A stretch of DNA of 42,961 bases from IMG/VR virus record IMGVR_UViG_2531839476_000018. The stretch is one strand, 5' to 3'. Positions 13,467-32,427 of this stretch are shown piece after piece. This stretch comes from a virus (Duplodnaviria; Heunggongvirae; Uroviricota; Caudoviricetes). Below the pieces are notes generated by a model. It searched no databases. It had not been told where the DNA came from and saw only the letters and a program-made list of their open reading frames with translations. Both the position numbers and the translations under genes were made by a program. Every line of letters starts with the position of its first letter. Position 1 is the first letter of the stretch.

Positions 13467-14612
13467 TTAGCGAACAACGTTAATCTGTACGTCAGCGTAA
13501 TGAACCGCGCCTGCAAGTTTTATTGCAGCCTGAATCACCGGAGCCTTACGGGCTTCACGTTCTGATTGTGCCTGTTCATCCAGCGGCTGGGCGTATACGT
13601 AATAACCTTTGGGCAGCGTGTCACCTGATGACAACTGGCCAAGGTCGCCCCCGTTCCATACGCCCGGAGCAATCAGTCCATTCTGAACGGCCTGATCCAG
13701 TGATTTTTCAACATTTGATAACAGTCGGGTAATACCGGCTTCAGTCTGGGGAACTTTCGTGGTGCTGGTATAAAGCAGGTTATAGAGGTTGGTCTGCACA
13801 TAATTCTGTAACCAGTCCAGGCCGTGGCGTTCATCAAAGAAATCGCCGTTAGCCATCACTCCCTGCTGGAGGATAGCTGTATCATTCTGGTAGTACACGA
13901 ACACATTGCAGTTTTTTGCATCAAGTGCCGATGCCTGGCTGACTGTCAGTGTTTCATACCCGACACCCGGCTCCTGCTTAAACTTGAGCGTAATCGCGGT
14001 ATTACTGCCATTGAAATTAACCGTGAATGCCCGGCCAAATGCAGATAACGCAGCGTATTTATTACCCGATGAATACTGAATAAAACTGCGTGAATATCCG
14101 GCGGTTTTCAGTTTTGATGCCAAATCATCGCTGGATGCAGTCTGCAGGCATTTATCATCGCTTGTCGTAATCGCCAGAATACGGCTTACAGAAGAGGATT
14201 CGATCGCCGCAGCCACTTTCAGCCAGTCTGCATCCGGAATATCTTCATCGTCTGCAATCCCCAGCCCATACCATGAAGTATAATCGAGCATGGCATTCAC
14301 AGCCTGCTCCAGCGTCTCAGGCGTGGCCTGTTCGCTGTCTCCCTTCGTTTTCACCCAACGACCAACAAAAACCTCCTGAGGTTTCGGTGATTGAGAGAAA
14401 AACACCTGCGCAGCCTTATATTCTGGTGATTCCACGCCAAAATCTTTTCCAATATCTTCCGCGGCAGAATAACGGCGAATGCGCTCACTTACCGGAATGA
14501 TTGTGGACGGGCCGAGAATGAGTAATGCACCAAAATTTCGCCCTGATGCTGCACGCGGCGACATGATCACATCAACATTAACAACGTTTGATACAGGCAA
14601 GCCCTGTGCCAT
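13467..14612 (-). CDS. Tail sheath protein
   Basis: 381 aa upstream of the tube gene; contractile-tail gene order. Confidence 0.7.
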
Positions 14613-26631: not shown

Positions 26632-26954
26632 TTGCAAATATTTGCAAGTTAATTTCCGGGTGACGGCTAGGTGACGCGTAATTACATATCCGTCACCTGC
26701 TGCAAAGCGCGCCATATAAAGCCTGAAGATGTTTTAGGTGACAGGTGACGGTTGATTTTAGTTCTATATATATATAAGCGATCGTATAATACCTAAAATA
26801 CACACTCTCGCGTATATAGTTTTAAATTCTGCCGTCACCTGTCACCTTTAGCACATTCCCCATTGTTTTATATATACTTTTTAAGGTGACGCTTAAGCGT
26901 TTTGCCGTCACCTAGCCGTCACCTTTTTACAATCCAGATTGCAAAATTTCGCAA
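26632..26954. repeat. Putative replication origin: iteron cluster around an AT-rich core, bracketed by TTGCAA-N4-TTGCAA palindromes
   Basis: About ten copies of the core GGTGAC(G/A)G / C(C/T)GTCACC in both orientations (26659-26751 and 26832-26923) flanking an AT-rich stretch (26760-26830, tatatatatata). Perfect palindrome ttgcaaatatttgcaa at 26632-26647 and imperfect ttgcaaaatttcgcaa at 26939-26954. Adjacent to the primase-type gene. Confidence 0.6.
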
Positions 26955-29392: not shown

Positions 29393-29533
29393 ATTTAAGT
29401 CTCCACTTTCGTCTATAGCGCAAATTTATACGAAAACGGATTATTCAGCAATACGGCAATTCTATATCATCCTGTATTAAAATATCCGATAACGCATAAT
29501 CACCGTCCCTGTATACAACATGGATGAATCCAA
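29393..29533. promoter_or_regulatory. Immunity switch region (divergent cI / cro promoters and operators); individual operators not resolved
   Basis: 141-bp AT-rich intergenic region between divergent repressor genes; candidate promoter toward cro (ATTGCT-16-TATAAA) and CATAAT 24 bp upstream of the cI start. Confidence 0.5.
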
Positions 29534-30208
29534 ATGATTGATACTACCGATATCCTTTCTCAAAACATCAAGTACCTGATGGACAAAACCAAGATAAGCT
29601 CGATAACTGAGCTGGCACGTCGGTTACAGCTGAACCAACCAACGCTACACAGGCTGGTATCAGGAGAGGTGAAAGATCCGAAATACGCAACGTTAAAGCA
29701 GATCGCCGACTACTTCCACGTGTCACCAATAGACCTGGCAGAAAGGAGCCTTCAAGAAATGGAGAAAGAGGACGCGACAGGTATAAAAACGTATATTTCT
29801 CTTAGGTTTAATAAAGTACCTGTTTTGGGAAACACTCAGCTAGGCGTTGGAGGACTTTGGAGCGACACCCAATATTCAGTAGGTAGCAGTGATGGTTTCA
29901 TATACTGGCCGACAAAGGATGAAGATGCATACGCCCTGAAATGTGTTGGTGATTCAATGATGCCTAGAATCAAAGAGGGTGAGTTCGTAATCGTCGAACC
30001 CAACCACGACTACACTCCTGGTGATGAAGTACTTGTGGTTACCCGGGACGGTGAGGTCATGGTTAAAACCTTCTTGTTCGAACGCGATGGCCTGTTCCAT
30101 CTAATGTCTGTAAATGAAGATCATCCACCAGTCAGAGTACCACGCGAAAACATTGAAAAAATCCATTACGTGGCGGGGATCGCCAAATCCGCGCTACGCA
30201 TGTACTAA
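29534..30208 (+). CDS. cI: CI-type repressor (HTH plus LexA-like S24 autopeptidase domain)
   Basis: 224 aa; N-terminal HTH; C-terminal domain with GDSMMP (catalytic Ser) and a downstream Lys (EVMVKTF), as in lambda cI / LexA. Confidence 0.85.
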   Translation: MIDTTDILSQNIKYLMDKTKISSITELARRLQLNQPTLHRLVSGEVKDPKYATLKQIADYFHVSPIDLAERSLQEMEKEDATGIKTYISLRFNKVPVLGNTQLGVGGLWSDTQYSVGSSDGFIYWPTKDEDAYALKCVGDSMMPRIKEGEFVIVEPNHDYTPGDEVLVVTRDGEVMVKTFLFERDGLFHLMSVNEDHPPVRVPRENIEKIHYVAGIAKSALRMY

Positions 30209-30239
30209 CCTTTACAGTCTGATAACTTACCTCTGATCA

Positions 30240-30271
30240 AACCGCTCTCCACAAGGGCGGTTTTCTTATTT
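30240..30271 (+). terminator. Possible terminator after cI
   Basis: aaccgc ... gcggtt stem with a long loop, followed by TTTCTTATTT. Confidence 0.35.
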
Positions 30272-30292
30272 GCAAAATAATTCATTTTTGTA

Positions 30293-30321
30293 TTGACACA
30301 AAATCCCATAACGCATATAAA
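30293..30321 (+). promoter_or_regulatory. Near-consensus sigma-70 promoter (pL-like), TTGACA-17 bp-TATAAA
   Basis: TTGACA at 30293-30298, 17-bp spacer, TATAAA at 30316-30321; directed away from cI into the early-left region. Confidence 0.6.
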
Positions 30322-30356
30322 TACGATACCGCATAATTAATGCATTTTCTAATACC

Positions 30357-30369
30357 AGCTCTTTAACAA
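30357..30369 (+). promoter_or_regulatory. boxA-like element (AGCTCTTTAACAA), candidate nut / antitermination site
   Basis: 12 of 13 match to the rrn boxA consensus TGCTCTTTAACAA (lambda nut boxA is CGCTCTTA); about 30 nt downstream of the predicted start site. Confidence 0.45.
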
Positions 30370-30514
30370 ACAGAACCGCGTGACAGGTAAGCCGCAGTGC
30401 TCCTGGCAAAACGAAATAGCACCCGATGGGATCGAGGTAAGCGCCGAGTCCGTATGCGTACGGTAAGCGTAGAGGACAACACCGCGACGAACTGATAAGT
30501 CACGCAAGTTGAAA

Positions 30515-30532
30515 CGCCCCGATGATGGGGCG
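30515..30532 (-). terminator. Hairpin cgcccc-gatgat-ggggcg; possible terminator for the convergent 172-aa gene, or a boxB-like stem-loop of the pL leader
   Basis: Perfect 6-bp GC stem; on the minus strand it is followed by TTTCAACTT (moderate T-tract). Confidence 0.3.
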
Positions 30533-30635
30533 CTTAGTTCCTTTAACTCTGGGTGACCGGAAGGGTACCCATGCTTAAAGAAATTACTGGTTGTAAGGAT
30601 CGTAATCCGTGATTGCCTTCCCCGGATTTTCATCT

Positions 30636-31154
30636 TCAGAAGGCAGTCGGGCCTCTAAAGCATTTCGGGTTGAACAGATAGGAAGCCCTACAGTACGAAC
30701 AAACCATATTAACGACTCGCCCAAGGCCTGGCTTAGTAACCAGACCTTCCGCTTGCAATATAGATTTTCTCTTTTGCTCGTAGCAATTGGGACAAATATA
30801 AACCGGAGATTGGTCAGCATCTGCAGAAAGCTTGCTGCGATAGACCAGAGTACCCCGCATAGGCTGGTAAAGTTCATAGCTCGCCGCTTCAGCGGCCCAG
30901 TTCTCTTGCTTTACTTTCTCATTTTCCAGTTCAACAATTTTCTCCTTAGCCGCAATCAGCAGCTCCTGAAGCGACATTTGCTGCATCTGAACATCCATTA
31001 GCTTATCGAGTAAGATGTGCGTCTTCTCTTTAACTGCATAGTCGACAGTCAGATTCTGAATCTCTCTTGCTGCTCCAACCGCGCTTTTAATTGCTCCTCC
31101 CACACCGGATAACGATTCAGTTATCCGGGAAAGAATTCCTTTTTCTTCAGACAT
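30636..31154 (-). CDS. Hypothetical coiled-coil protein with a C-terminal zinc ribbon; cargo gene convergent with cI
   Basis: 172 aa; helical N-terminal two-thirds (…LQELLIAAKEKIVELENEKVKQENWAAEAAS…) and CPNCYEQ…CSYCRAS near the C-terminus; has its own upstream region with direct repeats. Confidence 0.55.
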   Translation of the reverse strand: MSEEKGILSRITESLSGVGGAIKSAVGAAREIQNLTVDYAVKEKTHILLDKLMDVQMQQMSLQELLIAAKEKIVELENEKVKQENWAAEAASYELYQPMRGTLVYRSKLSADADQSPVYICPNCYEQKRKSILQAEGLVTKPGLGRVVNMVCSYCRASYLFNPKCFRGPTAF

Positions 31155-31164
31155 ATCTAATCTC

Positions 31165-31220
31165 TCTCAAACTGTAGGGGTGAAGAGATATTAGACGATT
31201 TCTCACTGTAGGGGTACAAG
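31165..31220. repeat. Direct repeats (core ACTGTAGGGGT twice, 34 bp apart) in the putative promoter of the 172-aa gene
   Basis: actgtaggggt at 31171-31181 and 31205-31215, each preceded by tctc(a); candidate regulator binding sites. Confidence 0.4.
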
Positions 31221-31293
31221 GAGAACCACCTCGCCTGATGTGGTTAAAAGCAGGCACTCGATGATATCCATGTAATTGCTGTGTGTAGTCTTT

Positions 31294-31320
31294 GCCCGCC
31301 GCAAGTGACGGGCTTTTTTA
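31294..31320 (+). terminator. Intrinsic terminator (tL1-like) on the plus strand upstream of the early-left genes
   Basis: gcccg-ccgcaagtga-cgggc followed by TTTTTTAT. Confidence 0.55.
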
Positions 31321-31345
31321 TGTCTGAAAGCGCACTCGCAACAGC

Positions 31346-31528
31346 GTGCTCCCCGATATGAAAAAAGGAATACAACCGATGAAACCTGAACACATCCATC
31401 GACTGACGGGGCGCGATGTTCTCCGTTATCGCCGTAAAAACTTCGATTTGATGACCGGTCTGGCCGTTGCCACTGCGCTCGGTCTGATCATCACTTTCAT
31501 TCTCCTTGTAGCGAGGACCACAGTATGA
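31346..31528 (+). CDS. Small membrane protein with an arginine-rich N-terminus
   Basis: 60 aa: basic segment RLTGRDVLRYRRKNF followed by one transmembrane helix (LAVATALGLIITFILLV). Confidence 0.4.
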   Translation: MLPDMKKGIQPMKPEHIHRLTGRDVLRYRRKNFDLMTGLAVATALGLIITFILLVARTTV

Positions 31529-32427
31529 GTTTAGAAACCAGTCTAGAACTTAATAATCAACTTCTGGCACAACATAATGCGCTGCTTGAACGTCTTATCC
31601 GCACAATGGCATCAGGTATTGTTATGCATCCTGACACGATTTCACGAGTGCAGGAATGTCGGGATACAGCAACTGAAACTGAAAATATGTCAGCGGCAAT
31701 GACACTGGATGATCTGGAGTTCAGCGACGTTATCGCACTGGCTGGTTTCTACCCGGTAGCCACCCCTATCACAGAAGATATGCTGCAACGTGCTGTTGCC
31801 TACCGTGATGCTGAAGGCGATAAACGAGTAGTTCAGATTGATGCTCTCGACAGCGCATTGCAGGGCGTCAAACGAGCCAGGGCGCTGCTTAAACCTGCTC
31901 TCCTGGACCTGTCCCGTAACATCCTTAAGTTCTGGGACGACCTGCCAACCATCGGCGAGCGACGTGCTTTTGCCGAGCAGCTACTTGATGCACCTGCAGA
32001 TGGGCGTGATGAAGTTAAGCCGAAAAAGGCCAGTAACAAAGATGGAGAACGCACGGGGCCGTTTTACGTCAAAAATGTATCCGGCACAGCAGCCAGTGAA
32101 CTCCACACCTTACGCAAGTTGAACGAGATGCTTAAAAAAGGCCATATCGAGATCAACCGTGTTGAGTACCTTCAGCTGCAGGAAGAATTTGCACGCAGAG
32201 ACGCAGCAAATTCCAGCCAGAATAATGACGCCAAAGATGACCATACAATTGATTTCGCGGCACTACGCAAACAAGCTGAAGGGTTGATCCTCCAGTTAGC
32301 AAAAGGGGGCTACCGGGCAGAAGCTATTGCAATTCTGGAAAAACAGGGAGCCAGGAAACTTGGTGAAGTAACGGATGAAAATCTCGCTGAAGTAATCACC
32401 CTGGCTGAAAAAGCACTGGAGGGTTAA
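31525..32427 (+). CDS. Hypothetical protein (early-left operon)
   Basis: 300-aa ORF, start overlapping the upstream stop; no family recognised. Confidence 0.55.

Follow-up and report, generated by a model that had tools for sequence, protein, structure and literature searches.

The early-left region analysed here raises the question of how RNA polymerase could travel from a promoter beside an immunity repressor to early genes about 1 kb away, across sequence without a credible plus-strand gene and past a strong intrinsic terminator, in a phage with no detectable N protein. The window, that is the whole stretch of DNA analysed (42,961 nucleotides), belongs to a 43-kb temperate phage, and a 1.2-kb query taken from it (30200-31400) was 98% identical to Escherichia phage vB_EcoM-606R2 and to E. 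coli prophages. Processive antitermination is the textbook model for the reprogramming of elongating RNA polymerase, and to our knowledge few phage solutions have been described, namely the N, Q and put systems. An earlier note on this DNA had found no obvious N-type gene, and this was borne out: tblastn searches with eight N types and Nun returned nothing below E = 0.5 in the window or in the lambdoid prophage L113, while PHROG scans of the early proteins, like the annotations in the record, yielded only Q, the sole antiterminator being a Q-family protein of the right/late operon. The same note had suggested an N-independent, rrn-like or put-like leader. That suggestion is the one now favoured, given the missing N, the retained boxA and a position otherwise taken by putL or by N with nutL, although the 176-nt module on which it now centres had been overlooked. 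From genomic context and covariation we consider it rather probable that 30357-30532 is a cis-acting, promoter-proximal, N-independent processive antitermination RNA cassette.

The cassette follows directly on the immunity region. The cI-like repressor gene lies on the plus strand (29534-30208), with the primase-helicase gene and a cro-like gene on the minus strand on its upstream side, and its transcript is closed by an intrinsic terminator (30239-30263, plus strand) consisting of a 10-bp stem followed by a T-rich tail. Directly past the primase-helicase gene, GGTGACGG iterons in both direct and inverted orientation are densely packed around an AT-rich centre (26650-26930), an arrangement that looks like a replication origin. 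The early-left, pL-like sigma-70 promoter, TTGACA-17-TATAAA, occupies 30293-30321 on the plus strand and was the only site in the whole window to match TTGACA-N16-18-TATAAW, where 0.05 would be expected by chance. A stricter promoter scan omitted it because the final base of the -10 hexamer is A where T is usual; the promoter itself is real, and its earlier description as near-perfect was therefore slightly generous. Two tandem 18-nt repeats (family D1, 30300-30317 and 30318-30335, without assigned strand) overlap the spacer and -10 hexamer of the promoter as well as the start site, and a third copy (29481-29498) lies between cI and cro. This is the picture expected of operators and fits control of the early-left promoter by the repressor. 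Relatives with other immunity types carry a promoter of their own in the same position.

The early-left operon begins with genes for a 49-aa membrane protein and a 300-aa protein (31379-32427, plus strand), followed in order by those for a DUF2800 exonuclease, a DUF2815 single-stranded DNA-binding protein, DNA polymerase, nuclease, methylase and SNF2 helicase. In the record of vB_EcoM-606R2, the closest phage, a TIR-like domain protein is annotated after the DNA polymerase of this operon (L001, 15952-16713).

About 30 nt past the predicted transcription start lies a boxA, AGCTCTTTAACAA (30357-30369, plus strand), 12 of whose 13 positions agree with rrn boxA. With at most one mismatch allowed, no other site in the window matches (0.08 matches expected), and the boxA-like element first noticed at this place is upheld. 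Its core is identical to that of rrn, GCUCUUUAACAA, in the window and in most relatives, whereas class D has GCUCAUUAAGAA. When 30209-30640 was used as a BLAST query against complete E. coli genomes, the block at query positions 150-324 (window 30358-30532) recurred with unrelated flanks on both sides, different repressors and promoters lying upstream, and different genes or none downstream. The mosaic breakpoint at query position 150 falls at window position 30358, and boxA accordingly marks the 5' edge of a mobile module of 176 nt (30357-30532), of which it forms the first 13 nt. It heads every copy of the module, including those of divergent Enterobacter phage classes, and in at least five sequence classes boxA and the fold behind it recombine as a single unit. 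In all copies boxA is 12-63 nt 3' of the early-left promoter and the module points into the early-left operon. Conservation of boxA in relatives had been named beforehand as one of the points on which its proposed role could fail, and every relative was found to carry it.

Matches to the module were present in 104 of 5,426 complete E. coli genomes (~2%), and exact-pattern scans recovered about 100 further copies in IMG/VR contigs. Citrobacter, Pseudocitrobacter, Trabulsiella and Pluralibacter also carry it, as seen in one scan of species-representative genomes; since that scan gave only these four species, the family appears narrow. Divergent classes, among them that of Enterobacter phage BHUENT6, emerged from a core-motif scan combined with a covariance model, a search in related prophages that had been recommended at the outset. 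There is one copy per locus and one per prophage, as checked across the whole of the lambdoid prophage L113, and neither a second copy nor a nutR-like boxA was found in the right operon of the window or of L113. The true lambdoid prophage L003/L113, which carries the module between the immunity region and the recombination genes, possesses O/P replication genes, a nin region, Q and gam/bet/exo, with no N annotated. Directly 3' of the module, three-codon mini-ORFs (MKN*/MKH*, MHK*) with a strong Shine-Dalgarno sequence were noted in L003 (3190-3215) and L004 (3185-3215).

The position of the module becomes informative when its relatives are compared. Among 54 viral contigs encoding the same 300-aa early protein, 28 had the module and 22 a putL homologue, none had both, and the four with neither are loci incomplete upstream. 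The putL homologue of these sister phages is 77% identical to HK022 putL, with an identical core, AAACCAUGCGUCGGGA, and compensatory changes in stem II; it sits in the same place, behind the same type of promoter and upstream of the same RprA-like terminator, described below. L102, a module carrier, and L114, a put carrier, have the same promoter as far as the -10 hexamer, as well as the same sequence after the cassette, CCUUUGGGGUGCGG, which resembles lambda boxC. Because sequence is thus shared on both sides of the cassette, module and put are alleles of one slot. No boxA was found in the put-type sisters. The two alleles are about equally frequent in complete E. coli genomes, put occurring in 98 and the module in 104 of the 5,426, and E. 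coli O55:H7 DEC5E (module) and DEC5B (put) harbour sister prophages at the same yfhL site, yfhL adjoining the matching prophage in DEC5E. Genuine HK022-type putL homologues were thereby seen in non-lambdoid, myovirus-type prophages of the vB_EcoM-606R2 family (L114, 3372-3460; L217, that is DEC5B, 14001-14099).

The module was also considered as a homologue of HK022 putL and rejected in that capacity, there being no nhmmer or covariance-model match to HK022 and no AAACCAUGCGUCGGGA core in module loci; put-like matches with three mismatches within those loci were judged to be chance. In lambdoid relatives of L003/L113 the same slot is filled by N genes together with a boxA-boxB nutL, by put, or by boxA with other long non-coding leaders, the N genes in question having arginine-rich motifs (for example MDAQARRRERRAAKQ...). 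Leaders of the last kind were observed in other N-less lambdoid prophages, where boxA and a non-coding leader of 350-480 nt, without covariance-model relation to the module, stand in the N slot (L169, 3148-3500, and L180, 2925-3280; L201, 3003-3500, and L202, 1711-2200). The L169-type leader folds better than shuffled sequence (z = -2.3), and both the L169 and the L201 type may belong with the module in one functional class of RNA cassettes.

Downstream of boxA the transcript is predicted to form a structured RNA domain, P1-P5 (30378-30505, plus strand), on the grounds of covariation, conserved G-U pairs and a covariance model (R1). In this fold of about 130 nt, a three-way junction with nearly invariant junction bases, P1 (30378-30384 paired with 30499-30505) and P2 (30391-30399 with 30480-30488) lead to the nearly invariant P2b (30401-30404 with 30473-30476), an A-rich single-stranded junction, GGCAAAACGAAAUAGC (30405-30420), precedes the P3 hairpin with its bulged A (30421-30438), and P4 (30441-30444 with 30467-30470) encloses the P5 hairpin (30450-30463), all on the plus strand. 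A perfect GC hairpin at 30515-30532, CGCCCC-GATGAT-GGGGCG, was present just as first reported; this P6 has no U-tract on the plus strand and is missing from class C, which marks it as accessory to the module. No boxB, as a short hairpin with a purine-rich pentaloop, could be recognised after boxA in the window, nor any hairpin upstream of it; the GCGUGAC that follows boxA pairs instead, with covariation, with 30499-30505 some 115 nt away.

The evidence for this fold is comparative. RNAalifold gave a poor consensus on the raw MAFFT alignment because divergent rows were misaligned, and it was replaced by a manual structure and a covariance-model alignment. In the raw alignment of 63 distinct sequences, two-sided changes occurred in 10 pairs as against 5.3 in shuffles. 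In the model-based alignment including the divergent classes, which is fitted to the covariance model and therefore favours the structure, two-sided changes occurred in 30 of 43 pairs (15.9 +/- 2.0 when shuffled, 3-7 with slid partners), paired cells amounted to 93% (25-45% when slid) and the covariation score was 0.30 (0.12 shuffled). Compensatory changes can also be seen by eye in unaligned sequences: P1 reads GCGUGAC/GUCACGC in the window and AGCAGC/GCUGCU in BHUENT6, and in L100 a C-G pair across the P3 bulge has become U-A. Recurrent G-U pairs assign the RNA to the plus strand, for in the complementary strand they would turn into A-C mismatches. While the helices vary, the junction bases CCUGGCAAA..GAAAU.GC and AGAGGA are near-constant, as is typical of RNAs that present a specific three-dimensional surface for binding. 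The folding of the single sequence, which the earlier note had proposed as a check, did not contribute, the plus strand being no more stable than shuffled sequence (z = +0.38) and the minus strand giving a weak z = -1.98.

Other identities for the region were examined. A search for tRNA and tmRNA found none, and Rfam 15 gave no match to the module, either at gathering thresholds over the whole window or in permissive local scans (E <= 10) of the region and six relatives. Contrary to the statement that the first part of the transcript holds no plus-strand ORF, two such frames exist, a 32-aa GTG ORF (30397-30495) and a 130-aa GTG ORF (30609-31001). The former, arginine-rich, was rejected as coding, since the L003 class lacks its start codon and the region covaries as RNA; the latter lies antisense to the minus-strand gene of 172 aa described below. 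Deletion variants lacking P4/P5 or P2-P3 were encountered at three loci (L053, 6473-6622; L088, 1319-1468; L097, 4964-5089), having arisen by recombination between the three GGUAAGC repeats of the module, and these may be defective prophages, or else the P4/P5 or P2-P3 arms may be dispensable.

The degree of conservation bears on the idea that the module is a decaying, functionless remnant of a nutL/N leader left behind after the loss of N. Its position and its boxA are indeed those of nutL, and in some relatives, among which the window does not number, the module is followed by a boxC-like UUUGGGGUGUGG. Against this, sequence and structure are strongly conserved, with the 30 compensatory pairs spread across classes and genera, the module persists in ~2% of complete E. 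coli genomes and in about 100 viral contigs, and it contains neither an ORF remnant nor any similarity to N genes. We regard a relic of this kind as highly improbable.

Beyond the module, the transcript enters a region in which a convergent gene of 172 aa (phrog_1244, unknown function) occupies 30636-31154 on the minus strand. Among the overlapping ORFs it is this one that has family support, and the early-left transcript accordingly runs antisense to it, as had been proposed. Its promoter region (31152-31257, minus strand) is of the sieB type, 81-90% identical to the sieB promoter region of lambda and P22, and the homologous region is labelled 'sieB: promoter' in the P22 record; this homology identifies the gene as a moron occupying the sieB slot. 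Its leader contains two copies of an 11-nt direct repeat, ACTGTAGGGGT (31171-31181 and 31205-31215). Relatives of the 172-aa gene were noted in HK446 and ev099, and it is possibly an exclusion or defence gene.

Two further proposals of the earlier note were that the transcript is an antisense RNA controlling the convergent gene, or that an N-like function lies with the small arginine-rich protein encoded at 31346/31379. In their favour, the transcript is indeed antisense to that gene, and the 49-aa protein contains an RYRRK motif. However, the module is unchanged in phages without the convergent gene (L004, L038, L101), and antisense passage through the gene in the sieB position is normal in lambda and P22, pL transcription opposing sieB in lambda. 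The hydrophobic C-terminal stretch of the 49-aa protein (phrog_11981, unknown function) reads as a membrane helix, and the protein is found equally in put-type sisters and is absent from the lambdoid module carriers. Taken together these proposals seem very doubtful, whether as an antisense regulator or as an N-like protein.

Immediately before the first early-left gene, in module-type and put-type phages alike, lies an element resembling the host small RNA RprA (31210-31323, plus strand; Rfam RF00034, 47.5 bits against a gathering score of 70). In relatives the element scored 48-60 bits, likewise under the gathering score of 70, and only its 3' half aligned well (L054, 7971-8064; L038, 5664-5765; L011, 944-1038; L114, 3690-3799). 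That 3' part (31258-31323, plus strand) comprises AAUUGCUGUGUGUAGUCUUUGCCC and a strong intrinsic terminator with its stem at 31294-31313 and T-run at 31314-31319. The hairpin and T-run previously reported at 31294-31320 are thus real (31294-31319), and what had been missed is that they belong to this element. The 3' 45 nt (AAUUGCUGUGUGUAGUCUUUGCCC, terminator and U-tract) are nearly identical to those of host RprA, whereas the 5' half of the prophage element is unrelated; the element also differs from RprA in its prophage location, within the leader of an operon. It might act as a mimic or competitor of RprA, or have a connection with how RprA arose.

An RprA-like element was located 0-750 nt 3' of the module in 65 of 106 loci, and of 80 distinct contexts at least 48 had a strong plus-strand terminator beyond the module. 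The most compact form is seen in L038, L101 and L011, where module, short hairpin, RprA-like seed and terminator follow one another within about 95 nt, and where the Shine-Dalgarno sequence of the first early gene comes only 2-10 nt past the terminator U-tract. Therefore, in this minimal arrangement, the early and replication genes need read-through of the terminator from this promoter.

A leader that precedes a terminator could alternatively be a regulated attenuator, its three-way junction sensing a metabolite or host factor and so setting the level of read-through. A 5' leader in which several helices meet at a junction whose unpaired bases are invariant does have the look of a riboswitch aptamer. 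No alternative pairing, however, joins the aptamer-like domain to the terminator, and module and terminator stand anywhere from about 70 nt to more than 750 nt apart, entire genes having been inserted between them, a spread incompatible with an expression platform. A riboswitch would also give boxA no role, and the module is without an Rfam match. A sensing leader of this type is accordingly unlikely in our view, if less so than a relic or an antisense regulator.

The main rival to the antitermination cassette is that boxA alone, by recruiting NusB/E-NusG, shields the long untranslated leader from Rho, the folded RNA being a product of its own, made at the very onset of lytic growth, that would act in trans or as a decoy, for instance against host defences or to sponge up a host factor. 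A Nus-dependent shield against Rho by boxA alone is established for rrn operons and CRISPR leaders; it might leave the fold free for another purpose, and a nearly invariant junction is what a specific binding surface would be expected to show. In many relatives, moreover, a hairpin or terminator some 20-70 nt 3' of the module could delimit a discrete RNA. Yet boxA and fold always move as one recombination unit, in at least five sequence classes, and this unit is the exact positional alternative to the antiterminator put of the sister phages. Since boxA is missing from the put-type sisters, this operon has no independent need of it. P6, lacking a U-tract and missing in class C, defines no conserved 3' end. 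We hold this explanation to be a minority prospect, at perhaps one chance in several, and the riboswitch, relic, antisense-regulator and small-protein readings likewise fit worse than the cassette.

Comparison with known systems helps to define what the cassette would do. Like HK022 put, it is early-left and promoter-proximal, occurs in N-less temperate enterobacterial phages, and is a folded non-coding RNA without a dedicated phage protein. It differs in being a three-way junction of about 130 nt, as opposed to the two stem-loops of about 70 nt in put, and in always being headed by boxA, which put lacks. HK022 put acts via the beta' zinc-binding domain. Lambda and HK022 each have two sites, left and right, and the single site per phage, without a counterpart in the right operon, counts against antitermination by the module; yet the put-type sisters also have a single site each. 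Put reportedly needs no Nus factors (PMC9378689). The boxA of the module, in contrast, argues for Nus involvement, and the cassette probably makes use of Nus factors.

With lambda nut/N the module shares its slot behind pL and a boxA about 30 nt into the transcript, and some of its relatives keep a boxC-like GU-rich tract 3' of the module, as in lambda nutL; it has, however, neither boxB nor an N gene, and the fold of about 130 nt stands in the place of boxB. With rrn leaders and CRISPR-array leaders it shares the boxA core, a position at the start of a long untranslated transcript and independence from a phage protein. In rrn leaders, however, the order is boxB-boxA-boxC with no counterpart of P1-P5, whereas the module faces a strong intrinsic terminator in a phage setting and under apparent repressor control. 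Antitermination in rrn operons involves boxA with NusB, NusE, NusA and NusG, SuhB and S4, and the rrn literature describes Nus-factor/boxA complexes as countering mainly Rho, not strong intrinsic terminators, a point that counts against the cassette. The EAR RNA of the Bacillus eps operon is likewise structured and has been proposed to act in cis by protecting polymerase from termination; it differs from the module in organism and sequence, in lying within its operon and in lacking boxA; the module itself matches no Rfam family. The mEpimmI 'Nus-dependent non-lambdoid' phages were set aside as a separate group with an N-like Gp17 (PMC11893012). The lambdoid phage LLS lacks N, and for it a put-like mechanism was merely guessed (PMC12315714). 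No earlier description of the module was found in Rfam 15 or in the searchable literature.

A sequence of events can be proposed for the cassette. Upon induction of the prophage, the repressor-controlled promoter at 30293 would fire, and the nascent RNA would first present the rrn-type boxA, known from nut and rrn as the binding site of NusB and NusE (S10), on which these two factors would load. The transcript would next fold into the P1-P5 three-way junction, and the folded RNA, together with the Nus factors held at boxA, would remain on the elongating polymerase and render it resistant to termination. The polymerase could then travel on through about 0.8 kb in which the transcript is untranslated, antisense to the sieB-position moron and likely a good substrate for Rho, and pass the RprA-like intrinsic terminator at 31294-31319, so that read-through would reach the genes for the DUF2800 exonuclease, the DUF2815 single-stranded DNA-binding protein, the DNA polymerase and the helicase. 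The cassette would thus play the part of N with nutL in lambda and of putL in HK022, its fold supplying the contribution of N-boxB or, as in HK022, of an RNA by itself. The anatomy, the conservation and covariation, the lack of N, the slot shared with put and with N/nut and the terminators downstream were observed directly; the antitermination activity, any Nus dependence and any contact with RNA polymerase are inferred. The most specific version, in which a boxA-anchored RNA of about 130 nt, its three-way junction tethered through NusB/E, replaces N and boxB and itself makes the polymerase resistant to both Rho and intrinsic terminators, is put forward more tentatively, its chances being a little short of even.

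RNA-mediated processive antitermination is of a known kind, while the module is a new RNA family. The module probably gives phages a third means, beside N/nut and put, of getting polymerase past terminators, and, at ~2% of complete genomes each, it is about as common in E. coli as put. Many lambdoid prophages lack N, and the module offers a concrete and widespread candidate for their early control. The sister prophages of DEC5E and DEC5B, which differ only in the cassette and share an attachment site, provide a ready-made comparison of the two alleles. The attached RprA-like terminator in addition hints at phage mimicry of a host stress sRNA. If the proposed role of the cassette is true, the assembly of Nus factors on boxA and the modification of polymerase by RNA only, which have so far been treated apart, would become linked.
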